Source: Patescibacteria group bacterium (GTDB lineage: Bacteria; Patescibacteriota; Patescibacteriia; JAHIZJ01). From it: DNA of 64,000 nt. This document shows positions 1,047-62,228 of this stretch, piece by piece. A model generated the notes under the pieces. The model had not been told where the DNA came from and did not search any database. It saw nothing but the letters and a program-made list of their open reading frames with translations. Where the stretch lies: the NCBI GenBank assembly GCA_028714495.1, contig JAQTMH010000005.1:32840-96839 (forward strand), read 5' to 3'. Made by a program: the position numbers and the translations under genes. The first letter of the stretch is position 1, and every line of letters begins with the position of its first letter.

Positions 1047-1048
1047 CA

Positions 1049-14353: not shown

Positions 14354-14683
14354 TTAGGCAGACGGTACGGGTTCGATGATCTCAAACACTCCATGGCGAT
14401 GAGTCGTCACATACAGAGCCTTGAACCTGCGGGATCGGTGGTTTTTCTCGAAGTAGCTGCCCTCGATTTCCCACGAATCCCCGTTGCGATTGGCGCGACG
14501 ACAGCCAATGACCATAGCCTCGATCCGGCCGTCGAAGACGGGTTCCGGAATGTTCACGGCTTCTGCGCTAGCATCGACCGTGAACCAAACAGTATGTTGG
14601 TGCTTCCGGTCGTCTGCGAATAGCGCGGTCATGAGGTCGAACTTCGACGGTCCGCCACTGATCGAAATCACTGGGTTAGCCAT
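14354..14683 (-). CDS. hypothetical protein, GC-rich (about 57% GC) relative to surroundings
   Basis: 109-aa ORF with a strong SD (AAAGGAGGGG) before the ATG. Its composition stands out from the 40% GC background. Confidence 0.45.
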   Translation of the reverse strand: MANPVISISGGPSKFDLMTALFADDRKHQHTVWFTVDASAEAVNIPEPVFDGRIEAMVIGCRRANRNGDSWEIEGSYFEKNHRSRRFKALYVTTHRHGVFEIIEPVPSA

Positions 14684-25160: not shown

Positions 25161-25162
25161 CC

Positions 25163-25966
25163 ATGGCTTTAGTTTTCAGCGCCTTGCTCCCCCACCCACC
25201 GATTTTGATTCCGACCATCGGCGGTAATTATCTTAATCAGGTTAAGAAAACTCTTAGCGCCCTGGAAAAAGTATCACTGGCCTTCCAATCTTCAAGTCCG
25301 GAAATCGTTTTTTTGATTTCCCCGCATGGCCAGATTAATCCCGACACTATCCTGATTAACGGGGCAAAGCTTTTTACCGGCACGCTAGAACAATTTGGTG
25401 ATGATACAACTCGACTAGAATTCAAGGGAAGCCCAGAGACATGCCTGAAAATCACTGACTTGGCAGATTCCAAGAATATTTCTCTCCAGACAATCGTGGA
25501 AAGCAATTTGGATCATGGCGCGATTGTCCCGCTTTATTTCTTATCTAGTAATTACAAAGAATTTAATCTGGTTCCAGTCAGCTACTCCTTGGGCGATGTT
25601 AATTCCCATCTTGAATTCGGGCGTTTGATCTACGGCCTGGCTCAAGCCAGTTCAAAAAGAATCGCGCTGATAGCTTCAGGCGATCTGTCTCATCGCCTGA
25701 CGCCTGACGCGCCGGCTGGATATAGTCCAAAAGGTCAGGAATTTGATGCCGAGTTGATAAAATTATTATCTGAAAATCGCCTGACTGAAATACCCACCAT
25801 GGATCCAAACTTTATCGACGCGGCCGGCGAATGCGGCTATCGTTCATTGCTGATTACCCTTGGCGCCCTGGAGCGGCTCAAAATTACGCCTGAGGTCCTC
25901 TCCTATGAAGGTCCATTTGGAGTCGGTTACGCGGTTGTCAACTTTGGTATTAAAGATAACGCATGA
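25163..25966 (+). CDS. amrB: AmmeMemoRadiSam system protein B-like (Memo/LigB-fold)
   Basis: Called from context with the AMMECR1 and radical SAM genes. N-terminal LLPHPP..SPHG motifs resemble the LigB/Memo superfamily. Confidence 0.5.
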   Translation: MALVFSALLPHPPILIPTIGGNYLNQVKKTLSALEKVSLAFQSSSPEIVFLISPHGQINPDTILINGAKLFTGTLEQFGDDTTRLEFKGSPETCLKITDLADSKNISLQTIVESNLDHGAIVPLYFLSSNYKEFNLVPVSYSLGDVNSHLEFGRLIYGLAQASSKRIALIASGDLSHRLTPDAPAGYSPKGQEFDAELIKLLSENRLTEIPTMDPNFIDAAGECGYRSLLITLGALERLKITPEVLSYEGPFGVGYAVVNFGIKDNA

Positions 25967-26481
25967 AGGAATACGCGGCCTTAGCTAAACAAGCGATTCA
26001 AGCATATTTGCGAGATAAAAAAGTTATCAAGTCTCCGTCATCTCTGCCCGGTGAACTGCTTAAAACCCGGGCGGCTGTTTTTGTGACCCTCCATTTCAAG
26101 GGTGATTTAAGGGGATGCATCGGCACCCTGGCTCCGGCTCAGGACAATGTTGCCCTGGAAATAATCCATAACGCGATTTCCGCCGCGGTAAATGATTTTC
26201 GCTTTCTGCCTTTAACACTGCCCGAACTCGAACAAACTGAGATATCGGTTTCAATTCTTTCCCAGCCTCAACCAACCACCATTGAAAGGCTTGATCCAAA
26301 AAAGTTTGGCGTGATTGTGAGAAGCAATTCGAAAGTCGGCGTGCTTTTACCTGATATCGAGGGCGTTGAAACCGTCGAGGAACAAATTCAAATAGCTTGT
26401 CAAAAAGCCGGCATAAAATATCCAAAAGAGCCTTTTGAGCTCTCGTGTTTTACCGTCACACTTCATAAAAGCGAACCATGA
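25963..26481 (+). CDS. amrA: AMMECR1-domain protein (AmmeMemoRadiSam system protein A)
   Basis: The RGCIG motif at the expected position (LRGCIGTL). 172 aa. Confidence 0.8.
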   Translation: MKEYAALAKQAIQAYLRDKKVIKSPSSLPGELLKTRAAVFVTLHFKGDLRGCIGTLAPAQDNVALEIIHNAISAAVNDFRFLPLTLPELEQTEISVSILSQPQPTTIERLDPKKFGVIVRSNSKVGVLLPDIEGVETVEEQIQIACQKAGIKYPKEPFELSCFTVTLHKSEP

Positions 26482-42047: not shown

Positions 42048-44105
42048 TTAATAAACAATTTGAGAAGAAGCCAAAATTTCATCTTGACCGTCTTGATTAA
42101 TGTCATTAACGGTTACCAGAATTCCGTTGCGCCAGGTTTTATCAAAGGCGAAAAAGCCTGGAGTTATAGCCTTCCCTTTGTCGTTGAATATTCTGATGTG
42201 GGGACCTCCTCCTGGCCCCGCGCCTGTGACAATTTCGTCTTTCCCGTCGTTATTTATATCGCCCGAAGCCACGCTAACTCCTCCGCGGAATTTCTGATCA
42301 TAGGCGAAAAAGCTGGATATAAGTTTCCCTTCGCCGTTAAAGACTCTGACGTGCGGTCCTCCATGATATCCGGCGCCAGCGATTATCTCGTCTTTTCCGT
42401 CACCATCAATGTCGCCAAGCGCTATATTTACTCCGCCGCGAAAATTCTTAGCGTAGGCAAAAAACCCGGGATTTCTTAATTTTCCCGAAGCATCGAATAT
42501 CCTTATTTGCGGCCCGCCACCCTGGGCCGTTCCGGTAACAATTTCCAAGAGACCGTCGCCATTGAGATCGCCGGCAGCCAGATTGACATTGCGGTTATAA
42601 TTCGCGCCATAGGGATTAAATTCCGCAGTCAAAAATCCTTGGCTGTTATATATTTGCACTTTATTGCCCCGGCCAATCACGGTTTCATTGGCTTGGTCGC
42701 CGTTTAAGTCTTTTTTTATGATTCCGACACCGCCTGGATATTCACTGGTATAGGTAAAAAATCCCTGCCGCAGTGTTTGGCCTGAACCGGCAAAGGCCTT
42801 GGCAAAGGCGCCGTTGATGTATTGCCCGCTGGCAATTTGAAATTGCCTCTTCAAGAGGATAATTCCGTCATGACCCGAGAGCGTTACGGATGACACAACC
42901 TCTCCGGAATTAACCGGTGACTGCGTCCCCAATAATTTTTCATAACCTTCCCCCAAATCAACAGTTTGTTTGCTGCTGGTTGAATTTACTAAAACAATAC
43001 CGTTTTCGAAATCCCTGCGCCAGACTCCCTCAGCCACCCCGGATGATTTCGGGGAAGTTGTATTTGAAGCTTCAGTCACGGGATCGCCCAAATAGACGTC
43101 GTATTCGTCATACCACCAGGTGTCAGAATGCCGTAGGGCTCCGTAATCAAAGCTGGCAAAGCCGTTGTCTAAAAGCGTGCTAGTTAGAATATACCGCAAA
43201 GAACGGTAATCATCGGCTGTCCCGGTCGAAGATTTTCCGTTAATAATAACAACCTGCGGCGATTTCCCCTGATTCATAAAGTCGAAATATTTATGCATTG
43301 CTCCGGACCAGCCGCCGTCCAGGGCTGAAGGAAATTCTTCGATAAATCTTCCGTTGAGCGAATCGTAATATTCACCTCCTCCATTACCAACGATAATCGC
43401 GTCTTGGCCCTCATAGCTTCTAGAGATCTCCAGCATTTCAGTCATGCCGTCGTGCCAGGCCTGATTAAGCTGATCCGCAGTTTCAGCCACGCCGTCACGA
43501 TTTAAATCTAGATTGCCGCTATTCAGCCAAGCAACGTCATTCCAGACATTATCGTAAAATATCCCGTCCCAAAAACCAGTTGACATCACTTTATCATGCA
43601 TGAACCGCGGCAAATATGAAAGCCACTGTTCGCCATTGCTCAAAGGGGCGGTATTAGTTACGTTCAGCATCTTTGTGCCTGGCCAAAAAGTCACATTTCC
43701 ACCCTGACTATCAAATAGCCACCAGCCGTCTGATATCCCACTGCCCAATTGGCAGAGTGGGTGCTGGGCATCCGTAATTGTCATATGGCTATCCGGAAAT
43801 TCTTGTGACAAAACATAAGCCAAAATAATGATGTCCGGATTTAGCTCCCGCATCAATCTCAAGCTGTCTGGACTCGTGTATTGCAGCTCAATACCCAGAA
43901 CAACAGCATCCCAACGTGATAAGCTTCGAGCTTCTTCGGTGGATAAATTTGAGGTGTGATATACATTGGCCAGCCTGGGAAAATCGGCTGAAATTGTCCG
44001 CGCCGCCGTTGTCTTCGGCTTGAAACACAACAGCACCAGTAAAACCATAAAGGCCAATTGCGAAATTACCAATAATTTATTTCTTTTCTGAAATAAGAAT
44101 TTCAT
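42048..44105 (-). CDS. secreted protein: N-terminal TIM-barrel glycoside-hydrolase-like domain + C-terminal FG-GAP/VCBS beta-propeller repeats
   Basis: Five repeats of the D.NGDG.DEI..G...GGGP.[IV]R[IV]F type. The N-terminal domain shares FPRLANVY and FWPGTK with the product of 45456..46661. Confidence 0.5.
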   Translation of the reverse strand: MKFLFQKRNKLLVISQLAFMVLLVLLCFKPKTTAARTISADFPRLANVYHTSNLSTEEARSLSRWDAVVLGIELQYTSPDSLRLMRELNPDIIILAYVLSQEFPDSHMTITDAQHPLCQLGSGISDGWWLFDSQGGNVTFWPGTKMLNVTNTAPLSNGEQWLSYLPRFMHDKVMSTGFWDGIFYDNVWNDVAWLNSGNLDLNRDGVAETADQLNQAWHDGMTEMLEISRSYEGQDAIIVGNGGGEYYDSLNGRFIEEFPSALDGGWSGAMHKYFDFMNQGKSPQVVIINGKSSTGTADDYRSLRYILTSTLLDNGFASFDYGALRHSDTWWYDEYDVYLGDPVTEASNTTSPKSSGVAEGVWRRDFENGIVLVNSTSSKQTVDLGEGYEKLLGTQSPVNSGEVVSSVTLSGHDGIILLKRQFQIASGQYINGAFAKAFAGSGQTLRQGFFTYTSEYPGGVGIIKKDLNGDQANETVIGRGNKVQIYNSQGFLTAEFNPYGANYNRNVNLAAGDLNGDGLLEIVTGTAQGGGPQIRIFDASGKLRNPGFFAYAKNFRGGVNIALGDIDGDGKDEIIAGAGYHGGPHVRVFNGEGKLISSFFAYDQKFRGGVSVASGDINNDGKDEIVTGAGPGGGPHIRIFNDKGKAITPGFFAFDKTWRNGILVTVNDINQDGQDEILASSQIVY

Positions 44106-45455: not shown

Positions 45456-46661
45456 ATGAGAAAGATGTGTTGGTTGGTTTGCCTGTTCGCCGGCATCATG
45501 TTGGTTTCTACGGGTTGCGCTCCTGGACCCAGGGTCCTGACGAGACAATACCCAAGGCTGGCCAACATTTACCTGACGAACTCTCTGACCGATGAGCAGG
45601 CTCGAGCCCTAGCCCGTTACGATCTGGTGGTGCTGGGACTCGAAAACCAGCACAACAATCCGAAGCCGCTTCAGCTGATCCGCCAGACTAACCCCGACTG
45701 CCGCCTGATCGCCTACGTCTCGACTAACGAGTTTCCTGAAGGAAGCTACGCGAAGAACGAGGATGCCAAAGGTCCTTGGCATGATCTGAGAACGCGTTTC
45801 CGGGAACGCCACTTTCTTTGCGCACCCAACGGCGAGTATGCGTCCTTCTGGCCGGGCACCAAGCCCTACAACTTCACCCTGCCGGAAATCGCCGACACGC
45901 TCGTGAACTTCGTCAGCGAGGAATTCGATTGGCGCATTTGGAATGGGGTTTTCTGGGACAATGTCTGGTCGGATGTCTCCTGGTACAATAACGGCCAGGT
46001 CGACGCCGACCTTGACGGAAAACCCGACAACATGACCGTGTTCAACTCACGATGGATTTACAACCTGAACCGTCTTATGGGTCTGAGCCGCTATCGTCTC
46101 GGCCCCGAACGTCTCGTCGTCGCCAACGAGAGCCTAGACAACATGGGCCAGTGGCTGATTAACGGCCGGCTGTTCGAGGGTTTTCCTAATACCCTCGGCG
46201 ACAGATCGGCCGAAGGTCTTGAGCATCTGCTTGACCTCTACAAGAAGTTCTCGCGCGACACCTGTTCACCCTCCCTGACCATCGTTCACACCGAGGCCAA
46301 TCCAACTGATAGCACCGCGGTTCTCTTCGGCCTGACATTCGCGCTTCTCAGTGATGGCTACTTCGCCGTCGACCACGGCCCGAATCAATCGGATATCCCA
46401 GGTGATACCGGATGGCACGACCGTCTCTGGTGGTATGACGAATACTACCAAGACATCGGATTGCCGCTGGAGGATTCCTACTGTCAGGGATCGCATGTCT
46501 GGACGCGCGAATTCCAGAAAGCAGTGGTTATCTGGAATCCCAATTACTTCGCAATCGACGCGAAGTTCTCGCTCCTTGACGGCAGCTCTATCGCTGTCAC
46601 CGTCGCACAACGTACGGGTCTGATCTACAAAAAGTCACTTATGCCCGGTTCACGCCAGTGA
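45456..46661 (+). CDS. lipoprotein paralog of the TIM-barrel GH-like domain of 42048..44105; high GC (about 56%), likely horizontally acquired
   Basis: Lipobox signal (MLVSTGC). YPRLANIYLT and FWPGTK conserved with the neighbouring gene. GC3-rich codons in an AT-rich genome. Strong SD AAGGGAG. Confidence 0.55.
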   Translation: MRKMCWLVCLFAGIMLVSTGCAPGPRVLTRQYPRLANIYLTNSLTDEQARALARYDLVVLGLENQHNNPKPLQLIRQTNPDCRLIAYVSTNEFPEGSYAKNEDAKGPWHDLRTRFRERHFLCAPNGEYASFWPGTKPYNFTLPEIADTLVNFVSEEFDWRIWNGVFWDNVWSDVSWYNNGQVDADLDGKPDNMTVFNSRWIYNLNRLMGLSRYRLGPERLVVANESLDNMGQWLINGRLFEGFPNTLGDRSAEGLEHLLDLYKKFSRDTCSPSLTIVHTEANPTDSTAVLFGLTFALLSDGYFAVDHGPNQSDIPGDTGWHDRLWWYDEYYQDIGLPLEDSYCQGSHVWTREFQKAVVIWNPNYFAIDAKFSLLDGSSIAVTVAQRTGLIYKKSLMPGSRQ

Positions 46662-46750: not shown

Positions 46751-47956
46751 ATGCGAATAGCCTTTCTTGCCCACAGCTTTCCCTACCCCGCGGAAAAGGA
46801 CGGGCACACCTTAATTCTCTATCATTTACTCAAGGAACTCTCCCAAAGGCATAAGATTACCTTGTTTTGTTTTGGCGATAAAAATGATCGGATCAACATA
46901 AAGTGTCTCACTGAATTTGGTGTTTGCGTAAGAATAATTGAGCGGCCAAAACGTTCCTTGTTCCTCTATTACCTCTCAAAAATTTCCAGAAAAATGGCTT
47001 GGTTTCAGTATCGTCTATTCACCAATGAGATGGTAAAAGAGGTTGAGACAATTGATAATTGCCCGGATTTTGATTTGGTCTGCGTCCATTCTCCCTTTGT
47101 CTCCGCCTATCTCCAATATTTCAAGCATAAACCCGTGGTGTTTACCTACATCGACGCCCTCTCATCTTGGTACCAGCAATTCGCCTCAGTGACCGCTAAC
47201 CCGCTAAAAAAAGTACACTATCTGTTTGAGGGCCATAAGGCCAGTCATTTGGAACGTGAACTATCAAAAAAGATGTTTGATACAATCGTCGTCTCAGAAA
47301 TTGATAAAAAAATAATTTCCTGTCTTTCTCCAGAAGCGCCAATATCAGTTATCCCAAACGGGGTTGATCTTGATTATTACCGGCCCAGCCTCACCCCGCC
47401 GGATCCAAACGTGATAATTTTCACTGGGACAATGGATTATCCGCCCAATGCCAGAGCGGTCCTCGATTTTTATAATGAGGTCTGGCCCCTTTTGATTAAG
47501 GAACGTCCTGAATTGCGCTGGCTGATTGTTGGCAAAAATCCCACGCTGGATGTTTTCGAGCTGCAGTCGAAAGACGAAAATATCAAGGTTACCGGTTACG
47601 TCAAGGATATCCGTCCATGTCTCTGGCGTTCGGCAGTTTACGTGTCACCGCTTTCCTTGGGCACCGGCTTTAAGAATAAAATCATCGAAGCCATGGCTTG
47701 CGGAAAGGCCATAGTTGCCAGTCCGACCAGTCTTTCAGGCTTAACCGCTGAACATGGAAAACACCTCCTCATTGCCAACACCCCCCAGGAATATCGAGAG
47801 CATATTATAGCTCTTCTGGCTAAACCCGACCGGCGGCAGAAACTGGAAATCGCCGCTCGAAAACTCGCCGAACTATTCAGCTGGTCCCAAACCGCCCGAC
47901 AGTATGAAGAGGTCTTTACCCGGGTTTTATCGCGTCACCATGACTCAAAAAAATAA
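46751..47956 (+). CDS. glycosyltransferase family 4
   Basis: MRIAFLAHSFPYP N-terminus and GFKNKIIEAMACGKAIVAS at the C-terminus. Confidence 0.75.
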   Translation: MRIAFLAHSFPYPAEKDGHTLILYHLLKELSQRHKITLFCFGDKNDRINIKCLTEFGVCVRIIERPKRSLFLYYLSKISRKMAWFQYRLFTNEMVKEVETIDNCPDFDLVCVHSPFVSAYLQYFKHKPVVFTYIDALSSWYQQFASVTANPLKKVHYLFEGHKASHLERELSKKMFDTIVVSEIDKKIISCLSPEAPISVIPNGVDLDYYRPSLTPPDPNVIIFTGTMDYPPNARAVLDFYNEVWPLLIKERPELRWLIVGKNPTLDVFELQSKDENIKVTGYVKDIRPCLWRSAVYVSPLSLGTGFKNKIIEAMACGKAIVASPTSLSGLTAEHGKHLLIANTPQEYREHIIALLAKPDRRQKLEIAARKLAELFSWSQTARQYEEVFTRVLSRHHDSKK

Positions 47957-49310
47957 CTCTTGGCCTTTAATTATCTTCTCGGCGTTGGTGCTGGTGCCAC
48001 TTCTCTATTTTTTGATTTTTACTAATCCCAGCTGGATTCAAATCGCCCAAATCGCCGTCCTGATCGTAATCCTGCCAATTTTCTTTTGGTATGAAGAGCT
48101 GGGCTTTTTCGCCTTGATAGTGCTTCGACCCGCCCTTGATGTTTTCAGCGAAAACGTCCTGGTTAAGATTGGCCAGTTTCCCTTAAACCTCTCGTCGGTT
48201 GTCAGCTTGATTACCATTGGCTGGGCAGCCTGGTATTTCCTGCGCCATCGGGTCAAAATCTGGAAGCAGCCCCTATTCTGGCCGTTCGCTATTTTCGCCC
48301 TGCTGGGTGTTATTTCTTTTGTCTATACCGAGTCCCTAAGCGCTACCCTGAGGGAAGTCTTGCGCCTGGGCAGCATTCTCTTTTTATTCCTTATGGCTGG
48401 CAATATTCTCGACAGCCGAGAAAAATTTCAGCGCCTAATCAAATCAATCGGCCTTTCTCTGATTATTCCGCTGCTGGTCGGAACTTATCAGCTATTCAGC
48501 AATACGGGCCTGAGCTTTGCCGGAGTAAATAACCGGATCTATGGCACTTTCGGCCATCCCAACGCCCTGGCTTTTTACCTGGTTTTATCGCTCGGTTTGT
48601 TTATTTCCTACTATTTTCAAGAAAAGACCAAAAAATCAAAGTGGTTCCTGGCCGGCCTGGGCATGATGTTTCTTTTTTTACTCCTGACTTATACTCGCGG
48701 CGCCTGGATTGGCTTTCTTATTTTTTTAATGATTCTGGGTTTTATGCGCTTCCGAAAAATCGTCATCGCCCTTGTCATAGCCGCGATTTTATTGATCACC
48801 ACCGGACCAATAATCGACCACTTTACTTTCAATCAATATAATTTTTCTTTTACCTCTATCCCGGTTATTAAACGGTTGACTGACGAAACATCTGATGAGA
48901 GTTCGATTGACTGGCGGCTGAAAGTCTGGAGCGATATGAGCCGCAAAATTACCGAGCGTCCTCTTTTCGGCTATGGCCTGGGCGCGTTTCCGGTCATCCG
49001 GGAGCAATCGGTCAAAGGCTTTTTTGAAAGCACCGAGGCTCATAACGATTACCTGCGCCTGGCTATTGAACTTGGGTTTGTCGGCTTGTTTTTCTATGTA
49101 CTGCTCCTGGGAAAATTACTATATAATTTAGTTCGTAATTATCGAGTGAGCCATGATTTATCACAGAAATCCTGGATTTTGGGCGGGATTGCTTTAACCA
49201 TAGCTTTTGCCGCGATGAGCTTTTTTGATAATCTTTTACAAGGTACGGCTGTTATGTGGGCTTTTTGGTCTACTATGGCCGTGATCCAGAAATTACCATC
49301 ATTGAAATAG
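47940..49310 (+). CDS. O-antigen ligase/polymerase family membrane protein (Wzy_C domain)
   Basis: About 11 TM helices. An YTRGAWIGF loop typical of Wzy_C/WaaL. Confidence 0.7.
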   Translation: MTQKNNSWPLIIFSALVLVPLLYFLIFTNPSWIQIAQIAVLIVILPIFFWYEELGFFALIVLRPALDVFSENVLVKIGQFPLNLSSVVSLITIGWAAWYFLRHRVKIWKQPLFWPFAIFALLGVISFVYTESLSATLREVLRLGSILFLFLMAGNILDSREKFQRLIKSIGLSLIIPLLVGTYQLFSNTGLSFAGVNNRIYGTFGHPNALAFYLVLSLGLFISYYFQEKTKKSKWFLAGLGMMFLFLLLTYTRGAWIGFLIFLMILGFMRFRKIVIALVIAAILLITTGPIIDHFTFNQYNFSFTSIPVIKRLTDETSDESSIDWRLKVWSDMSRKITERPLFGYGLGAFPVIREQSVKGFFESTEAHNDYLRLAIELGFVGLFFYVLLLGKLLYNLVRNYRVSHDLSQKSWILGGIALTIAFAAMSFFDNLLQGTAVMWAFWSTMAVIQKLPSLK

Positions 49311-49345
49311 CCTATTTTCATTTTTTTGGCAATATCGAAAACAGA

Positions 49346-49470
49346 AATTAAAAATGTAAAATTCAAAATGAAAAATTATTGTATCCCGCCTTTCGACTCC
49401 GCTCGAGGCGGGCTATTTGTCATTGCCTAAAGATAAAATAGGTAATGCATTTTGAATTTCTTCAAAAGAC
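49346..49470. mobile_element. MITE-like mini-element: 23-mer AATTAAAAATGTAAAATTCAAAA + CCCGCC(N18)GGCGGG hairpin + degenerate inverted copy of the 23-mer
   Basis: The 23-mer is identical to 61758-61780, and its reverse complement is at 62206-62228. Confidence 0.4.
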
Positions 49471-49771
49471 CAAACTTAAGTTCTGGTTGAGAAGGCTTTA
49501 GCCTGGGTGGGAATTACTTGTCCTTAACCTTGATATTAATAAAACTCCCAGAGCCACTGTGCTCTGGAATTGAATAACGTTTTTAATGGTAATAAGGGCC
49601 TTACCCGCCTACGGTTAGTATTTAATTTAGCCTTTTATTCATTGCTCCATCCGACTATTACCAACTAGGTAATATCAGGGGCCTACGGCGGGTTATTTGC
49701 AGCGGTTACGATATGGTGAATACTGAATAGATTATCTTTGTTGGCGATATGATTGTTTTGTGGAAGCAAAT

Positions 49772-49816
49772 AAAAAAAGAGCCCGTTCGTTTCGAGATGA
49801 AACTACTAGGGCTCTT
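49772..49816 (-). terminator. intrinsic terminator of the GC-island operon (AAGAGCCC..[GTTTCgagatGAAAC]..GGGCTCTT + U7 on the minus strand)
   Basis: Stem and T-tract seen directly in the sequence, 27 nt downstream of the stop of 49843..50319. Confidence 0.55.
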
Positions 49817-49842
49817 CGAAAGAGCTGCTGAACTCGGCCTCG

Positions 49843-50319
49843 CTACTTCGGCGGATCCTGCCAAGTGGTGGCTTTGCCATCCGCCGGCAGCCTCACCTTG
49901 TACCCACCGTAGCACCAGGGCCATCCAGTCTTTCCGTTGGCGCCCCGGCAGTGCAGATACAGAGTCAGGTTCTTGTCGCAGGAACCGATGGCGTAGGTGA
50001 CCTCGCTTGCCGAATCCGGAACGTTGACAAGCTCGGGATCACCCATCAAACAATTGTCCCCTGACAACGAGACGGTGTAGGGTCCGGTGCCCGGGCCATC
50101 GTCCCACTGAACCTGCGTCGGGAATTGGACATGGGCCGTGAACAGGTACATCCCGCCGCCGATGTAGCTGACCTTGAAGTTGGGGTTGTCGATCACGACC
50201 ACGGTATCCGTGGGCGCGGACGCAGGCGTGACCGCCGACGGCGTGATCTGTGCCATCGCCGGAGCAATGCAGAAAGCCATCACTGCCAGCGTCAGCAACA
50301 GAACCAGGGTCTTTCTCAT
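49843..50319 (-). CDS. secreted hypothetical protein (GC-rich island)
   Basis: Start placed at MRKTLVLLLTLAVMAFCIAPAMA (signal peptide), with SD AAAGGGAGGAAGG upstream. GC about 58%. Confidence 0.5.
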   Translation of the reverse strand: MRKTLVLLLTLAVMAFCIAPAMAQITPSAVTPASAPTDTVVVIDNPNFKVSYIGGGMYLFTAHVQFPTQVQWDDGPGTGPYTVSLSGDNCLMGDPELVNVPDSASEVTYAIGSCDKNLTLYLHCRGANGKTGWPWCYGGYKVRLPADGKATTWQDPPK

Positions 50320-50380
50320 CTTTCCTTCCTCCCTTTCGTTTTTGGTGGTTGGCGATCTGATACAGTTCCGAAACGTGGTT

Positions 50381-51250
50381 CTAGTTCCCGCCGATGATGA
50401 TGCCGTAGCGCCGCTCATCGCCGGGACGGAGGTTGACTACCTGTCCGTCCGACGTGACGCGATATTCGAACACGAACCATCCGCCGCCGAGGTCCCGGAG
50501 GTTCTTCAGCTCCGTGGCAGCGGAGAAGTTCCCGACCGGACCGACGAATACGCCGGAGCGCAACTCGTCACCATTCGTCTTCTGCAAGCGGATCAGCGCC
50601 AATGAGTTCTTGCGAACCCTCATGGTTGTCGTCCAAGTGCTGTCAGCGAATTGCATCGGGTGGGTCGTGTACTGGAAAGTTGTCCACGTTCCCCACCAGT
50701 ACACCGGTCTGTCGGGGTTGGCAGGCCAGTCCAGGTTCGGGTCGTTGAAAGCCGTACCCGTGTACCAGACCTGGGCGCCCATGATGGAGTCCACGACGCC
50801 GGGATTGACCATGACTTGGCCATTCTCGACGTACAGTTGGAACTCACGCAAGATGGACCATTCGGTACCACGAGACGACAGCAACTGCTGGTCGTTGACG
50901 GCAACATCCAGCAGCCGGTTCATCCGATCCTCCCCGTCCATGTACCAGAAGCCGACGGTGAATCTCTCGGTTCCCCAGACCGACCTCGAGTAGGTACCCG
51001 TGACGTGTCCCTCTGAGAATGTCCCGAACAAGTGGAGCGTGTCAGGATTGGCGCTCGAGACGACATCGCCTGTGATGTACACCGGCCATCCGTCTTGTGC
51101 TCCCATCGGAGCCGTCGCGTTGAGCGTCAAGCTGACAGTCTCCTGGTCGGAAAGCCCGGGAGCGGCGAAATCCCAGCTGTCGCGCGAGCACCCGGCGCAA
51201 ATCGCCAGGACACCGATCACCAGCCATAGCCATCCGTGCATACGACTCAT
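50381..51250 (-). CDS. hypothetical lipoprotein (GC-rich island)
   Basis: Signal plus lipobox LAICAGCS. SD GAGGAGGAG. 289 aa. Confidence 0.5.
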   Translation of the reverse strand: MSRMHGWLWLVIGVLAICAGCSRDSWDFAAPGLSDQETVSLTLNATAPMGAQDGWPVYITGDVVSSANPDTLHLFGTFSEGHVTGTYSRSVWGTERFTVGFWYMDGEDRMNRLLDVAVNDQQLLSSRGTEWSILREFQLYVENGQVMVNPGVVDSIMGAQVWYTGTAFNDPNLDWPANPDRPVYWWGTWTTFQYTTHPMQFADSTWTTTMRVRKNSLALIRLQKTNGDELRSGVFVGPVGNFSAATELKNLRDLGGGWFVFEYRVTSDGQVVNLRPGDERRYGIIIGGN

Positions 51251-51263
51251 CTTCGCTCCTCCT

Positions 51264-53114
51264 CTACCAGCCGTGGTCCAGGCCGATGCCGAACCAATGG
51301 CGGTCTGTGTGTGTGACCTCTCCGTTTGTCAGATTCCGATCGGTTGTGTCATTCATGAACTTGTACAAACCCTTGATTCGCCAGTACCGGTTAAAGCGGT
51401 ACTCGAAGCCCGCGCCAGGCCCGTTCCAGTCGAAACTCCATACCTGGCTGTCATACGACCAGGAGTCGTAAGACGCGTAGAGTACGAGCTTGTCCACTGG
51501 CTTGATGCCGATCCTTCCTTCGAAAACCCGCATCGTATCAGCGGAGAACGACAGGGTCTGGCCGTCGAAGTGACGAGCCTGCTCCTTTCGAAGCGCTCGA
51601 TCATAGGACGCCCGGAAATAGAACTTTCCAGGCTCAACAGTGTAGTTGCCGCCCAAGGAGTAGTCGAGGTTGGTACCACGCTTGTAGGTCATCTCGTAAT
51701 ACCCCAGCTGTGGAGTAATGCCGAGAATCCGACCATACCAGCCGTACCCATCGAAATACTTCGCCTTCTCCTGGGCGTGAATGAGGGTTGGCGTAACGTT
51801 GGTGTACTGTACGTACTCGCGCTGGCTTGATAGATACCAAGCTCCAGGTTCAAACCCTGTCCGCCAGAGACCTTGGAGGTCTCCGAGGATCCAGGCCCGT
51901 CCTCCGAGCCGATATTCACCGCTGACATGGTTCTTGTCCATGACAGCTTGTTCGACCCGGATGACAGTTGACATGTCGCAGAAGGGTCCCCAGCCATCAT
52001 AGCCGGAGATCCTCGGCAGCCACTCAAGGCCGCCGAAAACCGAGTGTTGATACGCATCATCCCTCACGTCCGCGTAGGCCAAACGGTAGTCCAGCCACCA
52101 CACTCCGCCCTGCACGAAATTGTGCGAAGTTTCAGGTGGAGCAGTGATCGGCGTAGCAACTGTCTGCGTAGGCGGAGCTGCGGTGCTGACTGGCGGAGGT
52201 TGCTGAATAGTGACGTCAGTCGAACCTTCATAGGAAAGAGGCACACGAACGAAGGCTCCGTTTTGGCAGTCGACGAACTGATACAGATAGTACCGGTAAT
52301 CGCCGAGGTCAACGGGATCATACTGCAGTGCTACCAGCCGATCAATCGGTTTGTGGTTCTTCGCGTCCTTCCAGTAGCAGACGGTTCTTCCCCAGGACTT
52401 CACGTCCTTTGAGAAACGCCCGCCGAAGATGAGCGCGTCGAGAACCAGCGGTTTGGATTCAGTGGAATACATCCAAACTGAATCCGGTTGGTTACCCCCG
52501 ATAATCGACTCCCACTGCGCGCGGACTTGTTCCGGTACGTTCATGAGCCGAAGTTGATCCTTCAGCTCGATTCCAGCCGGGTCACCGTTGGCGAAGTTCC
52601 ACGTGCGGAGCACATCAGATGGCTGCGCCATGAAAATCTTCGCGTCTGCTTTGGGTTTCCTACCAGTCGCCTGGTTGAAGCGCTTGATGTCCTCTTCGGA
52701 CACCCCAGCCTCTTTGGCGATCTCTTGCCAGCTTTCTCCCTTTTTGACGACTCTGGTAGGCGGCAGCTGAATCGGTTCCGGCTGCTTTTCCGTGCGTCTG
52801 ATATCGAGTTTGGTGTCCTGCACCGGGATCCATTCAGACCCCTTACAATACGCCAGTACCCGATATTCCACCCAGAAAGCGTCTCCACCCACCTGTTCAA
52901 CCGCGAAGTTGCCGTCTTTCGGCACCTGGATCCGTGTGATCCGTGAGTCAACAAGCTGTCCCACCTCAACCATGTTGCCGCCACCGGGCATGGTTACGTT
53001 GGCAAGATTGACAACCTTGCCATAAGGGGGCTGCTCGCACTGCGCGAAGACTGCGGAGCCGGTCGTCAATACGACCAGCGCGACCAAAACCGCCAGAACC
53101 GTATACCAACGCAT
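51264..53114 (-). CDS. secreted LysM-domain protein with C-terminal outer-membrane-type beta-barrel (GC-rich island)
   Basis: Signal peptide, a LysM-like segment (ESWQEIAKEAGVSEEDIKRF), and a C-terminal ~270 aa of amphipathic beta strands ending ..FGIGLDHGW. SD AAAGGAGGAT. Confidence 0.5.
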   Translation of the reverse strand: MRWYTVLAVLVALVVLTTGSAVFAQCEQPPYGKVVNLANVTMPGGGNMVEVGQLVDSRITRIQVPKDGNFAVEQVGGDAFWVEYRVLAYCKGSEWIPVQDTKLDIRRTEKQPEPIQLPPTRVVKKGESWQEIAKEAGVSEEDIKRFNQATGRKPKADAKIFMAQPSDVLRTWNFANGDPAGIELKDQLRLMNVPEQVRAQWESIIGGNQPDSVWMYSTESKPLVLDALIFGGRFSKDVKSWGRTVCYWKDAKNHKPIDRLVALQYDPVDLGDYRYYLYQFVDCQNGAFVRVPLSYEGSTDVTIQQPPPVSTAAPPTQTVATPITAPPETSHNFVQGGVWWLDYRLAYADVRDDAYQHSVFGGLEWLPRISGYDGWGPFCDMSTVIRVEQAVMDKNHVSGEYRLGGRAWILGDLQGLWRTGFEPGAWYLSSQREYVQYTNVTPTLIHAQEKAKYFDGYGWYGRILGITPQLGYYEMTYKRGTNLDYSLGGNYTVEPGKFYFRASYDRALRKEQARHFDGQTLSFSADTMRVFEGRIGIKPVDKLVLYASYDSWSYDSQVWSFDWNGPGAGFEYRFNRYWRIKGLYKFMNDTTDRNLTNGEVTHTDRHWFGIGLDHGW

Positions 53115-53262
53115 CGGATCCTCCTTTGGGTCTCCCCGTGTATCTTGTGATTCAAAACTACCTATTCAGTTGTCAGTGAGCCATCTATTGAGCCAAAGGC
53201 TCTAAAGTCCTGTGAGTGTTAGCTTCAACTGGACTTATAAAGCCTTCGGCCAGAATATTTAA

Positions 53263-54174
53263 TTATTCAAAATTACGGAATTCCTCTTCAGGTTCATTCC
53301 ACTTTTTTGGAGGTTGTCCTGGTTCTGGAATATCCTTGACATGGTCATAGAGTGTTTTTATCCGTCTATCTTGAAAATGTTCCTCCGGGTGGTTTTTTTC
53401 TCTGTTGACGGCGCCGACTTCTTCTATCTTGTTTTGTTTTGGATAATAACTTTCGAAAACAAATTCATTTTTCTTCTTGATAACCGGCTGCCGTTCGTCA
53501 ATCTCTTTTGTTATCTCGGATTTTTCTTCTTTCAACCCGCCCGTGCTTTTCACTTTTTTCAATTCGGGAGATGCCTTGGTCATTGATCTGAGAATATGAT
53601 AACCGCTCGAACCAACAAATCCAATAATAAATCCCGCAGCCAGATTTAAGGGAATGTTCGGCCGAACCGGATTATTGCTGGTCAATGGGTAGTCAACAAT
53701 CTTGAGGATTATCGAATTACCGCCGCCCAGATATTCCACGCCATTTTCCGACAGCACCATGGCTAAGGCCTTGGCCACGCTGTTTGCTTTATTCTTATCC
53801 TGATTATAAACCGAGATTTTTACCAAGCCGACTTCGGGCATTACCCTTGTTTCAATCTGATGTTTCCATTGCTCACGCTTCTTCGCTTCATCACCGTTGA
53901 GGATAGTGTCTTTTGACAAATAACCTGAGCTGGCCACTTTATCATAAAACGAAGTCGTATAAATAACTCGGGCCAGCGAATTGCTCAGTCTTTCAGCCGA
54001 CTTAGCCGCGGAGTAAGCATCCAAGTTTTGTGATTTTTCGATCACCATTAAAGAGAAAGTTGAGCCATACTCAAATGGCTGAATAAACGTGAAGATTACG
54101 CTAATAGCCAAAGCTAATAGTGTAATTAGACCGATTGATTTCCAATTTTCCTTAATCTTAGCGAAATAATTCAT
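53263..54174 (-). CDS. polysaccharide co-polymerase / chain-length determinant (Wzz-like)
   Basis: An N-terminal TM, a periplasmic domain and a second TM (LNLAAGFIIGFVGSSGY), with a charged C-terminal tail. Confidence 0.6.
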   Translation of the reverse strand: MNYFAKIKENWKSIGLITLLALAISVIFTFIQPFEYGSTFSLMVIEKSQNLDAYSAAKSAERLSNSLARVIYTTSFYDKVASSGYLSKDTILNGDEAKKREQWKHQIETRVMPEVGLVKISVYNQDKNKANSVAKALAMVLSENGVEYLGGGNSIILKIVDYPLTSNNPVRPNIPLNLAAGFIIGFVGSSGYHILRSMTKASPELKKVKSTGGLKEEKSEITKEIDERQPVIKKKNEFVFESYYPKQNKIEEVGAVNREKNHPEEHFQDRRIKTLYDHVKDIPEPGQPPKKWNEPEEEFRNFE

Positions 54175-54487: not shown

Positions 54488-55981
54488 TCAGGCGATATCA
54501 AAAATTTTTATTTTGCTGATGGCCGCTTCAGCCAATCTCATCCTTTCGCGGCTCTGGGCGTAAAGGGTATAGGTGGGATCGCCCTCTTTAACAATGCCTC
54601 CGATCCTTTGATGAAGATGCAGACCGGCTAATTTTTCTTCGGGCGCTCCCAGAAGTCGGGCGATCTCATCGATGGCCATATCGTTGACTTTAACGATTCT
54701 GCCATCCTTTTGAGCAAAGCACCGATGTTTGATCGCTCCCATAGTCAGATCATCCGCCTTAATCCTCGGGTTGCCGCCCTGCAACTTGATAATGCTTTGC
54801 ATCTTTTTCCAGGCCTGGCCTGAATCAAGAATTGCCTGGGCGCGAGAGCGACCCTGGCCACGTTTTACTTTGCCGCAGAGTTCAAGAAGTTCGCCGGCTA
54901 AGAGTACCGATTTTTTTTCGAGATCCCGCGGTCTTAGGGGGTGGCGTTGGAGAACTCTCAAAACATCCCTGGCTTCGAGCGCCGGTCCGACTCCCCGGCC
55001 GATCGGTTCAAGCGCTTCCGACATTCTAACCTTTAGCTTCATGCCAAACCTTCTTCCAAGATATAAAAATTTTCGTTCAATCTCCCAAGCCAGTTTTATA
55101 TTCGGTATCTTGGTATTCGGACCAACCGGCATATCGATCACGAGGTATTTAATACCCATGGCAACCTTCTTGGCCATAATACTGACAATCATCTTGTTGT
55201 ACGGCTCAATGCCCAATGGGTGCGAGGCTCGAATAATTCGGTCATCCGCCGGCGCAATATTTAATTCGCCGCCCCAAAGCAAACAACAGTTATTCTTTTT
55301 CACGAATTTTTTAATATTTTCCACGGAATGCTCAACCGGCGCCAGCACTTCCATCGTATCCGCTGTACCAGCCGGCGAGGTTACGGCTCTCGAAGAAGTT
55401 TTTGGAATAATTAAGCCAGTCGCCGCCACAATCGGCACCAGTACCATTGAAGTCCGGTTGCCGGCCAAACCGCCGACCGAATGCTTGTCCACGACCTTGC
55501 CGGGAAAATAAATAGTATTTCCGGTTTCAGCCATAGCCTTGGTCAAAAAATAAAGTTCTTCGTCAGAATAATGCCGGGCAAAACTACTGGCCACGAAATA
55601 GCTAATTTCACTCCGACCCAGTCGGCGATCAACAATGTCTTTGATGATTGAATAAATTTCTTTATATGACAATTCATGGCCGAGTAATTTCTTGATTATC
55701 GCTTTAATCGAGGCCGGCCTAGACAAAACCTTGACCTGGACTATTTGCCCCTTTTTCAAAGGATAGTCTTCCCAAATTTCCCGAAACAGACCAATTTCAC
55801 CGGGTTTGACCCTAGAGCTAGTGAAATCAGCCTCGGCAATCAGTTTATGTTTGCCCCATCTAATTTCCAGATCGTCATTAGGCTGAATCCCCAAATTTTT
55901 CGCTTCTTTATCCCGCAAAACAGCCACGTAAGCTCCCTCAGCAACAAAATCCAATTGTTTGCTTTTTAAGAAAAATGGCAT
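54488..55981 (-). CDS. AMP phosphorylase (archaeal-type thymidine-phosphorylase-family DeoA)
   Basis: The thymidine-phosphorylase core (SSRAVTSPAGTADTMEVL) with an archaeal AMPpase-type N-terminal extension. 497 aa. Adjacent to RuBisCO. Confidence 0.8.
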   Translation of the reverse strand: MPFFLKSKQLDFVAEGAYVAVLRDKEAKNLGIQPNDDLEIRWGKHKLIAEADFTSSRVKPGEIGLFREIWEDYPLKKGQIVQVKVLSRPASIKAIIKKLLGHELSYKEIYSIIKDIVDRRLGRSEISYFVASSFARHYSDEELYFLTKAMAETGNTIYFPGKVVDKHSVGGLAGNRTSMVLVPIVAATGLIIPKTSSRAVTSPAGTADTMEVLAPVEHSVENIKKFVKKNNCCLLWGGELNIAPADDRIIRASHPLGIEPYNKMIVSIMAKKVAMGIKYLVIDMPVGPNTKIPNIKLAWEIERKFLYLGRRFGMKLKVRMSEALEPIGRGVGPALEARDVLRVLQRHPLRPRDLEKKSVLLAGELLELCGKVKRGQGRSRAQAILDSGQAWKKMQSIIKLQGGNPRIKADDLTMGAIKHRCFAQKDGRIVKVNDMAIDEIARLLGAPEEKLAGLHLHQRIGGIVKEGDPTYTLYAQSRERMRLAEAAISKIKIFDIA

Positions 55982-55985
55982 TTTA

Positions 55986-57239
55986 TTATTTCCAGTGTTT
56001 TAGAGCTGCCTTTAGGACCGGGCTATCCTCAGCCTGTTTGTTGATCGGCGTGCCTTTGACCGCTGCTAGGACCGCTTCTTTTACTGCCTGGGCTCCGGCT
56101 AGAGTTCCGTTCGGATGGCCGTGTATTCCACCGCCAAAGTTTACTATCACATCCGGTCCGGTAATTTTATAAAGCCGTGCGATTAATCCCGGGTGAAGTC
56201 CGCCTGAAGCGATCGGCATTACTTTTTTAATCCGGCCCCAGGGCTTTTTTAAAAACGAATTGATTGCCACGGTCTCTTCGACTGAACCTGCCATTTTCCC
56301 GACCACGGTGCCAGTATGAAGCTGGTCAATGCCCGCCAGCCGCGCCAGCTTCGCGATAACCAGCATTGAAATTCCGCGCTCCGGATCGCGGGTAATCGCT
56401 GAATGCATTGCCCGGTGGCCATGGAGAATCAAACCGAGCTTGGCTTGGCGCAAAGCCTGCAAGCCAGAAAAGCCGATCGTCATGATATCAACCATGGCGC
56501 AATTGCCACCCTGGCTCTTGATATACTTTGCCCGGCGGATCATTTCGTCAGCCGGCGCCGTGATATTAAACGCGCAGATTTTCATTTCGCCGGTTTCTCG
56601 CTCAGCCCGGCGAGCCAGCCTTAGGGTTTCTCTGACTCTGTTTGTAAATGGATTGAACTTCAAGTCAGTTAAATTTTCATCGTCTTTGACCAAGTCGGCT
56701 CCGCCTTTGAAGCAGAGGTAGGCAAATCGAGCGTGCGCTCTCCAGCTCAAACCGATTTTCGGCTTCATAATCGCTCCGATTAAAGGCCGGCCCGGTATTT
56801 TTATTTTTCGGCGTACGCCCGCTATACCAAAGGCTGGTCCGGCAAAGGAATTGATATAAACAAGGGGCAGATCCAAATCTACCAGCCGCAATTTTGAAAC
56901 CACCTTCATGCTGAAAATATTTCCAGACACGCTCGACAAAAGCTGAGGTATGTTTCCTGGTTCAAAGAGCTCAATGGGATAAGCGATTCTAGCTAAATTT
57001 TTTTTAGTATTCAGGCCAATAACCTTAGCCGAAAGTCTTTTAAAAACCGACTCGCTCAACGTTCCAACTTCGGTCCAGGTGCCAATTGATGACTCGCCAG
57101 CCACAATCTGGGCGATTTCCTTTAAAGGCAACTTCGATTCAATTCGAAAAGTTGCCACCAGGTGGCTCTTTAAGTCAAGCCGCCGATTCAGCGCTAAATA
57201 ATTTGATTTGGGGCGGGCATTTTTCATTGTAAAATCCAC
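55986..57239 (-). CDS. rbcL: ribulose-1,5-bisphosphate carboxylase large subunit, form II/III
   Basis: GAIMKPKIGLS and GGADLVKDDENL active-site motifs. 417 aa. Confidence 0.9.
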   Translation of the reverse strand: MDFTMKNARPKSNYLALNRRLDLKSHLVATFRIESKLPLKEIAQIVAGESSIGTWTEVGTLSESVFKRLSAKVIGLNTKKNLARIAYPIELFEPGNIPQLLSSVSGNIFSMKVVSKLRLVDLDLPLVYINSFAGPAFGIAGVRRKIKIPGRPLIGAIMKPKIGLSWRAHARFAYLCFKGGADLVKDDENLTDLKFNPFTNRVRETLRLARRAERETGEMKICAFNITAPADEMIRRAKYIKSQGGNCAMVDIMTIGFSGLQALRQAKLGLILHGHRAMHSAITRDPERGISMLVIAKLARLAGIDQLHTGTVVGKMAGSVEETVAINSFLKKPWGRIKKVMPIASGGLHPGLIARLYKITGPDVIVNFGGGIHGHPNGTLAGAQAVKEAVLAAVKGTPINKQAEDSPVLKAALKHWK

Positions 57240-58156
57240 GGGTAGTACTTTTTTGCGTATTGTCTCACTTGCCTTGGCTCGATCAAACCAAATTCAGTCA
57301 CTAAATAAGTTATTTGATTGGCCGGTACTTTATCAAAGGCGAAATTCAGAATTTCCAGGCCAGCTGGCGCGCCAGCCCAAACCTCCTTAGCCGGCCGTTT
57401 CTCTATTTTCACCGGTATCTGGCCGACGCATTTCAATAGGCTGGCCACGATGTAAACTGGCACATGATTGACGCTGGCCGAGAGGGTTAAGCCAAAGCTG
57501 CCTATTTTATTTAACACTGAACCGTCGGGCATAATCGCGTCTGCCCCGATGACAACCGAATTCATCATTAAATCGCGTCCTGACGCGGGACTGATCAAAA
57601 ATGGTCCAGCGCTATCGACAATCATAGTGACTGGAATTCCCTTGGTCCGAAGCGCCTTGGCGGTAATTCGTCCCTGAAAAAGTGGCCGGGTTTCAGAAGT
57701 GTACACGTGGAATTTCTTTTTTCTGTGCGTCTCAATCAGAAGCTGTTCAGTTGTCGAAGAATGGCAATGGGTAAAAATCCTATCCCCGCTTTTAATGATT
57801 GCCCGCCCCAAAAGGCTGATTCGACTCTGAGTTTGCGCCAGCAGTTTAATGAATTCCTGGGCGCTTTTTTTCAGAATAAAAACCGAGGGCTGCTGGTTGA
57901 TCCTCTTCCAGACAAATAATAGTCCGTTTCTAGTCAGAGGTTCGGTCGGACGACTGTGCTGAAGGAGATAAGCCATCGCTACCTTCATTTCGTGTTTCCA
58001 GTTTTGCGATTTTTTTATCTTTAGGTTCGAACCAAACCGTACATAGGCTTCAAGCGTAGCTCGGGCGACAGCGGTGGCGCCTTGAATTTTTATGCTCTGG
58101 ATGTCCCGGATAACGCCGTTAAAAGAGTTGTAATGCATAATTTTAAAATTATTCAA
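57224..58156 (-). CDS. ribose-1,5-bisphosphate isomerase (e2b2 / eIF-2B-like family)
   Basis: 310 aa eIF-2B alpha/beta/delta-like protein immediately upstream of rbcL. Forms the canonical AMP-salvage trio. Confidence 0.75.
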   Translation of the reverse strand: MNNFKIMHYNSFNGVIRDIQSIKIQGATAVARATLEAYVRFGSNLKIKKSQNWKHEMKVAMAYLLQHSRPTEPLTRNGLLFVWKRINQQPSVFILKKSAQEFIKLLAQTQSRISLLGRAIIKSGDRIFTHCHSSTTEQLLIETHRKKKFHVYTSETRPLFQGRITAKALRTKGIPVTMIVDSAGPFLISPASGRDLMMNSVVIGADAIMPDGSVLNKIGSFGLTLSASVNHVPVYIVASLLKCVGQIPVKIEKRPAKEVWAGAPAGLEILNFAFDKVPANQITYLVTEFGLIEPRQVRQYAKKYYPWILQ

Positions 58157-61757: not shown

Positions 61758-62228
61758 AATTAAAAATGTAAAATTCAAAAGGAAGGAAGACGACAGGGAG
61801 AAATGAAGGGCATTTTATGGCTGTCGTCACTATTCATCAACGCACCTTAAAATTTAGTATTACTATTACTCGTTTCCTTCATAAGATTATCGCCACACCA
61901 AAATCGCACATCATCAGAAATCAGCTCATGCGATCAGGGTGTTCAATCGGCGCCAATATTGTCGAAGCGCAACATAGCGTCACCAAGAAGGAGTTTCAAC
62001 GCTTTATAAGTATCGCCTTACGTTCTGCTAGAGAGACCGAATACTGGCTGAATATATTAAAGGAGCTCGAAAACAATCATCAACCGTTTATCAACAATAT
62101 TCTCCGAGAAAATGATGAAATTTCTAAAATTATCGCAGCCATAATTCTTAAATCAAAGGATGGGACTTAAATTTTGCGTTTTGAATCCTTAATATTATAC
62201 ATTAATTTTGAATTTTACATTTTTAATT
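61758..62228. mobile_element. 471-bp unit bounded by perfect 23-bp inverted repeats (AATTAAAAATGTAAAATTCAAAA / TTTTGAATTTTACATTTTTAATT) carrying a four-helix-bundle protein gene
   Basis: IRs seen at 61758-61780 and 62206-62228. A further copy is at 49346-49368. Confidence 0.5.
61817..62170 (+). CDS. four-helix-bundle protein (TIGR02436 / 23S rRNA intervening-sequence protein family)
   Basis: HQRTLKFSI..RNQLMRSGCSIGANIVEAQ..SARETEYWL is the characteristic pattern. 117 aa. Confidence 0.75.
   Translation: MAVVTIHQRTLKFSITITRFLHKIIATPKSHIIRNQLMRSGCSIGANIVEAQHSVTKKEFQRFISIALRSARETEYWLNILKELENNHQPFINNILRENDEISKIIAAIILKSKDGT

Follow-up and report, generated by a model that had tools for sequence, protein, structure and literature searches.

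The DNA considered here, a 64-kb stretch of a Patescibacteria contig called the window below, contains at 49817-53114 a GC-rich segment with three genes. These genes, named A, B and C, encode a LysM protein with a predicted outer-membrane-type barrel, a predicted lipoprotein and a small secreted protein, respectively. The segment is probably a native, vertically inherited A-B-C operon and the core of a lineage-specific envelope locus in one clade of Patescibacteria. A preliminary description of the same DNA had taken it either for a recent horizontal acquisition, with a diderm as donor, or for a chimera created during metagenome assembly. Both readings are to be dropped, and the presence of an outer-membrane-protein (OMP)-type gene in a genome of the candidate phyla radiation (CPR) stands. 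Patescibacteria/CPR are treated as monoderms that have lost porins (10.1101/2021.05.31.446380; PMC8871954), and surface-layer homology (SLH) tethers were lost too (10.1101/2021.05.31.446380). In a group whose envelope is poorly documented (PMC8871954), the literature agrees with the earlier remark that an OMP-type gene is unexpected in a presumed monoderm.

Operon layout and descent of the locus

The segment stands out by its base composition. Its GC content is 0.578, compared to 0.442 in the remainder of the window, and all 29 of the 500-nt windows placed inside it lie at GC 0.54-0.61, the mean outside being 0.442 (sd 0.042). The steepest changes occur at ~49824 and ~53183, in agreement with the rise reported earlier between the terminator and the start of gene A. 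Third codon positions are affected as well: their GC content (GC3) is 0.67-0.79 in A, B and C and 0.36-0.58, or ~0.47, in the other annotated genes of the window. In this respect, the segment has the atypical composition expected of a horizontally acquired island. Patchy presence or incongruence with the flanking genes, by which such islands are also recognized, was not seen, and the cassette occurs in all lineages examined.

The loci of relatives (L001-L007, L010-L014, L018 and L019) were compared, representing ten lineages in addition to that of the window. Protein A has few homologues, with five 90% clusters among 5.8 billion and about 26 divergent representatives among 1.84 billion. Among these 1.84 billion representatives, no homologue was found outside this lineage, and the remaining matches cover the LysM stretch only. 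The homology search proposed earlier to identify a donor thus yielded none. The conserved gene order is Wzz-like/A/B/C/Wzy_C(-)/GT1(-)/X/GT4/GHL15-FG-GAP, followed by DUF11, with Wzy_C and GT1 convergent to the operon. This block was found in every relative with readable context, on contigs of up to 1.18 Mb. The genes further upstream vary between lineages (RuBisCO, TopA, DnaG and others). Upstream, A is always adjoined by the Wzz/CpsC-type gene, which has an ordinary GC3; the Wzy_C gene is the conserved convergent neighbour of C. The flanks belong to a polysaccharide locus, as the preliminary description had it.

The cassette and its flanks have diverged together. Protein A is 38-57% identical to the window's sequence in L001-L007, 33% in L010/L011 and L013, and 24-32% in L012, L014, L018 and L019. 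Among the proteins of the flanks, identity to the window is 43-56% for Wzz, 41-53% for Wzy and 49-61% for GT4; for the cassette, it is 26-58% for A and 23-54% for B. The ranking of the lineages by identity is the same for cassette and flank proteins. In the closest pair, L001/L005, the synonymous divergence (dS) of the cassette (0.33-0.74) falls within the range of the flanks (0.25-1.03). The ratio of nonsynonymous to synonymous divergence (dN/dS) is 0.21-0.26 for the cassette vs 0.02-0.14 for the flanks. Given the equal dS and a dN/dS of this size, the cassette genes are functional, under purifying selection, vertically inherited and fast-evolving. Protein A is 79% identical between the two loci, and Wzy 99%. 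Judged from these alignments, evolution is several-fold faster in the exported proteins of the locus than in its enzymes.

In the same pair, Wzy and GT1 are 97-99% identical, and A, B, C and the gene for an ASH-domain protein 71-87%. Two further loci with A at 46-56% identity, L016 (CAYJKP010000001.1) and L017 (CAZQLY010000007.1), are titled 'uncultured Gammaproteobacteria bacterium'. These titles are probably a taxonomic mislabel of metagenome-assembled genomes (MAGs) of Patescibacteria.

The layout of the three co-directional genes bears out what had been described: all carry a signal peptide or lipobox and a strong Shine-Dalgarno (SD) sequence, and a minus-strand terminator follows. The signal peptides were assigned from visual inspection and conservation, without a predictor. 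Gene A is preceded by AAAGGAGGA at 53127-53119, read directly. The SD sequence of gene B, GAGGAGGAG at 51264-51256, overlaps the stop codon of gene A, so the two genes are translationally coupled. The open reading frame (ORF) of gene C spans 49843-50418, the true start being the ATG at 50319 behind GGGAGGAAGGA at 50333-50323. The terminator consists of a hairpin (49817-49776) followed by U7 (49775-49769). The larger fold enclosing it has a minimum free energy of -26.4 kcal/mol (z -2.5), and 4 of 200 shuffles matched this energy. A consensus terminator scan missed this hairpin because of its long loop. At the other end, the GC3 shift starts downstream of the spacer between Wzz and A, in which the scan found no consensus sigma-70 site.

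An unusually long (~460 nt) AT-rich spacer, at 49311-49770, separates the Wzy_C gene from the operon terminator; the C-to-Wzy_C gap in L001 and L005 is ~130 nt. Within it lie two segments with a loose similarity to each other, at a distance of ~220 nt and close to small GC-rich stretches of the CCCGCC/GGCGGG type. The first of these stretches forms a hairpin followed by CTATTTG and resembles a terminator of the Wzy_C gene. An Rfam search of 49280-49860 gave no match (best E 0.99). Direct repeats flanking the cassette were sought in this left boundary spacer alone, where just two short low-identity pairs were seen. No viral-contig or plasmid relatives of the cassette were found, and a phage or plasmid origin was rejected on this ground.

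Protein A and its partners

Protein A is confidently predicted, from sequence and structural modelling, to be a Sec-exported LysM protein with an outer-membrane-type beta-barrel at its C-terminus. Its parts follow one another in the order signal peptide, N-terminal beta domain, LysM, Cys-containing middle domain, Pro-rich linker and barrel (Table 1). The earlier account of a 616-aa LysM protein whose C-terminal beta-strands end in ..HGW is confirmed.

The LysM domain (PF01476) scores 20.6 bits in the window's protein, just below the Pfam cut-off of 20.9 (E 4e-4). It is matched by 14 of the 26 members of the A family, with a best E of 3.9e-10; some distant members are without it. The family profile matches the LysM chains of LytE and of an autolysin in the PDB (E 1.6e-4). 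A search with the profile returned 1930 significant matches, most of them multi-LysM proteins aligned solely at positions 105-170. In the full-length AlphaFold2 (AF2) model of A (pLDDT 48), two helices appear at aa 129-146. On these sequence matches, the LysM assignment is supported despite the sub-threshold Pfam score.

The middle domain carries the motifs GGDPAG, W..C.WKD and C.NGAF, and it is kept even in family members without LysM. Its two conserved cysteines predict a disulphide-type domain. It has no family match and was poorly modelled in the full-length AF2 run. The linker that follows is Pro-rich throughout the family and variable in length.

Beta-barrel prediction on the C-terminal domain, named in the preliminary description as a possible point of refutation, returned a barrel. 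The first AF2 run, with full-length A and 5 sequences, reached a pLDDT of 48, and its porin matches were not trusted. It was replaced by a run on the C-terminal domain with a 25-sequence alignment, which gave an all-antiparallel meander of long strands (pLDDT 92.3, pTM 0.85). The predicted domain is a closed barrel of this type, and fold searches also back the beta-barrel fold. A simple score of amphipathicity failed to distinguish the barrel from the N-terminal region of A and was replaced by a family-wise column analysis, in which most barrel strands show alternating hydrophobic and polar columns across the family. The region is rich in glycine and aromatic residues (Gly 12%, Tyr 8.5%, Trp 4.9%, Phe 5.3%). 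The final residue is F, W or Y in 19 of the 26 members, commonly within G-L-x-Y-x-[FWY], and the others carry short tails. This ending resembles the C-terminal signal of classical porins.

Outside LysM, the weak Pfam matches of the A family are to OMP families alone, namely OMP_b-brl, LptD, OmpA_membrane and Porin_4. None of the curated porin and OMP families considered (Porin_4, OMP_b-brl, OmpA_membrane, LptD and Toluene_X) exceeds its gathering threshold. For instance, Porin_4 scores 16.4 vs 27 bits on the window's protein, and OMP_b-brl reaches E 3.5e-4 in 3 of 26 members. The best PDB profile match in this comparison is OpcA (E 0.0033). The A family is absent from Pfam and NCBIfam. Its fold is known, whereas its LysM-linker-barrel architecture, its sequence family and its occurrence in this phylum are new.

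The two partners are smaller. In B, Cys21 of the ..GC lipobox is invariant in 9 orthologues. Neither profile nor single-sequence searches with B and 8 orthologues gave a match in Pfam, PDB or NCBIfam. Protein C has a signal peptide ending in ...AMA/Q and evolves fast, with 19-36% identity to its orthologues. Its window sequence gave no family match in the Pfam, PDB and NCBIfam searches. Both A and C have Pro/Thr/Ser-rich stretches, which are candidate O-glycosylation sites.

Table 1. Features of the A-B-C operon, of protein A and of the adjoining genes (positions in the window)
Feature	Position	Strand	Description and basis
Gene A	51264-53114	-	616 aa; ORF, family alignments, Pfam, AF2 models
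Signal peptide of A	aa 1-24		by eye, family alignment
LysM domain of A	52635-52757	-	aa 120-160; Pfam, PDB profile matches
Middle domain of A	52215-52607	-	aa ~170-300; alignments, sequences
Pro/Thr/Ala-rich linker of A	52122-52202	-	aa ~305-331; read from sequence
C-terminal outer-membrane-type beta-barrel of A (predicted)	51267-52118	-	aa 333-616, ~14-16 strands, ends in conserved aromatic W616
Gene B	50381-51250	-	289-aa predicted lipoprotein; ORF, SD, lipobox conservation
Gene C	49843-50319	-	158-aa small secreted protein; start and SD, alignment
Intrinsic terminator of the A-B-C operon	49769-49817	-	9-bp GC-rich stem with inner stem, then U7
Wzz-A spacer	53115-53262	-	148 nt; SD of A inside, presumed operon promoter; sequence
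Wzz/CpsC-type polysaccharide co-polymerase	53263-54174	-	Pfam Wzz and GNVR; NCBIfam TIGR01006 E 1.3e-10; synteny
Wzy_C-family membrane protein (polymerase, ligase or O-oligosaccharyltransferase type)	47904-49310	+	Pfam Wzy_C E 5e-22; synteny
Gene X, GHL15-family predicted lipoprotein	45456-46661	+	Pfam GHL15; N-terminus ...STGC; GC3 0.69

Codon usage and competing explanations

The GC excess of the cassette lies mainly at synonymous sites and is held in every lineage irrespective of genome GC. Over all lineages, A, B and C have GC3 values of 0.67-0.92, those of the relatives being 0.70-0.92, and the background has values of 0.40-0.77. The background is lowest in L006 (0.40), ~0.5-0.6 in L001, L010, L013, L018 and L019, 0.65 in L012 and highest in L014 (0.77). 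In L014 the contrast is gone (cassette GC3 0.75-0.81 vs background 0.75-0.80), and in L012 it is small. In most lineages, 2-fold sites are shifted more strongly (odds ratio 3.5-7) than 4-fold ones (1.5-2.1). For the window, the change from background to cassette is from 0.35 to 0.73 in C/(C+T) and from 0.38 to 0.69 in G/(G+A), while the GC content of 4-fold sites (GC4) goes only from 0.58 to 0.68. TTC accounts for 95% of the Phe codons of the cassette, and ATA and TTA are absent. The gene in slot X also has a raised GC3 in most lineages, weakly so in L013. The codon-usage comparison suggested earlier confirmed that the cassette is atypical.

Since dS is not reduced, the synonymous sites are being substituted at a constant composition, and a directional force must act. 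The favoured explanation is that the C- and G-ending codons reflect selection on envelope genes that are putatively very highly expressed, and not a foreign origin. Two simpler causes were rejected. The high GC cannot be due to amino-acid composition alone, because GC3 is shifted besides the first and second positions. A general trait of secreted proteins is excluded by the ordinary GC3 of the secreted M23 and S11 peptidases and of GHL15-FG-GAP. Two points weigh against selection for expression: the 4-fold shift of L006 (odds ratio 3.3) nearly equals its 2-fold shift, and GC-biased gene conversion could produce a similar codon pattern.

An older origin of the composition also has to be considered. 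The cassette could have been acquired by the ancestor of the clade from a diderm or GC-rich donor, or be a remnant of a diderm ancestor; its GC-rich state would then be ancestral, the lineages having drifted AT-ward elsewhere. This would agree with an OMP fold that is otherwise a diderm hallmark, with the nearly constant composition of the cassette across lineages, and with the missing (L014) or small (L012) contrast in the relatives of highest GC. No donor family is detectable, however, and the best OMP-family sequence matches are marginal. Moreover, the dS of the cassette is not reduced, and synonymous sites are saturated between most lineages. Passive retention thus cannot explain a constant GC3, and an active force is needed. 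Such an ancient acquisition is unlikely, though it is a reservation about the native reading.

The main alternative to selection for expression is biased gene conversion. According to this explanation, the cassette would be a recombination hotspot, like surface-antigen genes under diversifying selection; conversion would keep GC3 high, and expression would be irrelevant. The several-fold faster evolution of the cassette proteins, the rise of both G- and C-ending codons and the GC3-rich neighbouring gene X, which varies between lineages, are all in its favour. On the other hand, the shift at 2-fold sites far exceeds that at 4-fold sites in most lineages, unlike a pure conversion bias. The dS of the cassette is not elevated, and the common ranking of the lineages for cassette and flanks gives no recombination signal at such resolution. 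All in all, we consider gene conversion quite unlikely as the force that maintains the composition.

A further explanation concerns the target of protein A and not its composition. CPR bacteria are commonly episymbionts, and A might be a secreted, host-directed pore for nutrient uptake, with a barrel that enters a Gram-negative host's outer membrane and a LysM domain that grips the peptidoglycan. The fast evolution of the proteins would fit, as would the want of a known home membrane in a monoderm and of BAM (beta-barrel assembly machinery) genes in the window. The strict and ancient linkage to Wzz, Wzy_C and a membrane-anchored lipoprotein points instead to the cell's own envelope, and neither a secretion system nor a toxin-like domain adjoins the operon. 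A host-directed role is therefore highly unlikely.

Recent horizontal insertion of the three genes as an island from a GC-rich diderm donor, the first of the two earlier proposals, was suggested by the GC difference with its sharp boundaries and by the OMP-type fold of A. The cassette occupies the same site in all ten other lineages, with identity of A down to ~24%, and it has co-diverged with its flanks at equal dS. No diderm homologue was found among the 1.84 billion representatives. The window has no tRNA gene, and the Pfam annotation of its larger ORFs no integrase or transposase. A GC excess that is concentrated at 2-fold synonymous sites, and is not uniform, does not fit either, and recent insertion is extremely improbable. 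The second proposal, a chimeric join, was prompted by the abrupt change of composition inside a MAG contig and is next to impossible, as the Logan assemblies of SRR22315509 and SRR22315508 (L008 and L009) rebuild both junctions with an identical protein A, and the same gene order recurs across numerous assemblies and samples that are independent of one another, with contigs of 0.7-1.18 Mb among them.

Related systems, surroundings and implications

Several known systems resemble the operon in part. The topology of A may be likened to that of OmpM from diderm Firmicutes and SlpA from Deinococcus-Thermus, which are peptidoglycan-tethered outer-membrane porins. Their tether is, however, an N-terminal SLH domain with a coiled-coil stalk, whereas no member of the A family has an SLH match and the linker is Pro-rich. 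OmpA likewise joins a barrel and a peptidoglycan-binding domain in one chain, and one A member matches OmpA_membrane (E 2.5e-3). The order of the domains is reversed compared to A, the OmpA barrel is 8-stranded, and its wall module is OmpA_C and not LysM. The 14-stranded monomeric channels of the outer membrane (OmpG, CymA and the FadL/TodX/BamG-like group) are 6-11% identical to the A barrel, with no Pfam family at threshold. In contrast to the FadL type, A is without an N-terminal plug, and the OmpG/CymA/FadL group is without the long LysM and middle-domain extension of A.

The combination of an integral barrel with a lipoprotein, as in A and B, is also found in pairs that export polysaccharides across the outer membrane, such as PelB/PelC, AlgE/AlgK, PgaA, and the outer-membrane polysaccharide export (OPX) protein plus beta-barrel of Wzx/Wzy pathways. 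Nevertheless, A, B and C are without Poly_export/OPX, tetratricopeptide repeat (TPR) or PelC-like domains, and the likeness of A to export porins is lower than that to OmpG. In addition, the co-polymerase of the locus resembles the Gram-positive CpsC type, and the organism is presumed to have no outer membrane. An OPX exporter of the Wza type has a Poly_export (PES) and an SLBB domain in a lipoprotein, and no match to these was found in B and its 8 orthologues. A different comparison is offered by the S-layer and glycosylation clusters of Geobacillus. There, the S-layer gene sgsE lies beside a glycosylation cluster with the Wzy_C-type O-oligosaccharyltransferase WsaB. Putative abundant surface proteins are likewise encoded beside Wzy_C and glycosyltransferase genes in the present locus, and the codon bias fits a very high expression. 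None of the three proteins resembles a known S-layer protein. Taken together, A falls outside OmpM, OmpA, OPX and the curated porins, yet shares their working logic.

If the operon is a native part of the envelope, the N-terminal LysM and middle domains of A would sit on the peptidoglycan, and the Pro-rich spacer would cross the zone of the wall. The barrel would lie in, or form, an outer layer and, together with B and C, might serve as a distal conduit or anchor for the glycan whose synthesis the neighbouring Wzz, Wzy_C and glycosyltransferase genes encode. Its function would then be comparable to that of an export pair of porin and lipoprotein, or to a tether of the OmpM/SlpA type. Alternatively, the trio may be abundant structural surface proteins that are glycosylated by the Wzy_C enzyme. 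Several points stand in the way of this envelope function. The barrel is a prediction, and no membrane in CPR is known to house it. No Omp85/BamA, Lpt or Lol genes occur among the Pfam-annotated ORFs of the window, and the genes next to the cassette revealed neither an OPX (Poly_export) domain nor a Wzx flippase or a priming transferase. The roles of B and C are drawn from gene order, as both are without detectable relatives or fold.

A bolder version holds that the envelope of this clade includes, or has kept, a second, outer layer with a peptidoglycan-tethered barrel, a lipoprotein, a small partner and a Wzy-dependent glycan. The CPR would then not be uniformly monoderm. Protein A would be a relic or a re-invention of the OmpM-like 'tether-porin' design of ancestral Terrabacteria, and it might even make up most of the ordered surface layer seen on cells of CPR. 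On present grounds, this version is speculative and rather improbable.

The wider window has the ordinary content of a small bacterial genome, including RseP, ProS, MreBC, PBP2, Alr and Ddl, along with ClpB, LexA, AMP phosphorylase, form III RuBisCO and ribose-1,5-bisphosphate (R15P) isomerase. The latter three, the nucleotide-salvage trio of CPR and archaea, lie in a row at 54488-58156 (-) as AMP phosphorylase, a form III-type RuBisCO and an IF-2B-family (R15P isomerase-like) gene. Roughly half of the relatives show the same synteny of the trio with the envelope locus. At 24-2287 (+), RseP, an M50 protease, is directly followed by a class II aminoacyl-tRNA synthetase (ProS-like). This order is of the Firmicute type, bamA being the gene after rseP in E. 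coli, and it hints slightly at a genome organization of the monoderm type. At 22787-26481 (+), a radical-SAM protein, a 454-aa protein of unknown function, a LigB/Memo-like protein and AMMECR1 form an 'AmmeMemoRadiSam' association, followed by PriA, Def and Fmt. A member of the '23S rRNA intervening sequence protein' family (PF05635) adjoins LexA at 61817-62170 (+), with no rRNA near. An Rfam scan of the window gave no match.

Two other spots of the window are GC-rich. Gene X (GC 0.556) is a paralogue of a gene of ordinary GC at 42048-44105. In relatives, its slot between GT1 and GT4 is filled by non-orthologous secreted proteins (ASH-domain, DUF4832, GHL15 and unknowns). The other spot, at 14354-14683 (-), is an isolated predicted ORF of 109 aa (GC 0.558, GC3 0.66) with no signal peptide and no match in Pfam or NCBIfam.

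The operon is conserved and apparently essential-looking, and its composition carries a more general message. A GC 'island' can exist without horizontal transfer; here, the synonymous signature stays constant in the same genes across genomes of ~40-77% GC3. Caution is thus needed when transfers, or chimeras in MAGs, are detected by composition. Furthermore, models for the loss or gain of the outer membrane early in the evolution of bacteria draw on the assumption that CPR are monoderm. The A-B-C operon raises the question of how a barrel is assembled, should BAM prove absent, and whether the glycan is exported or anchored. With its conserved operon encoding a wall-anchored barrel of the OMP type, this clade of CPR would provide a testable handle on an outer lipid or protein layer in these organisms.

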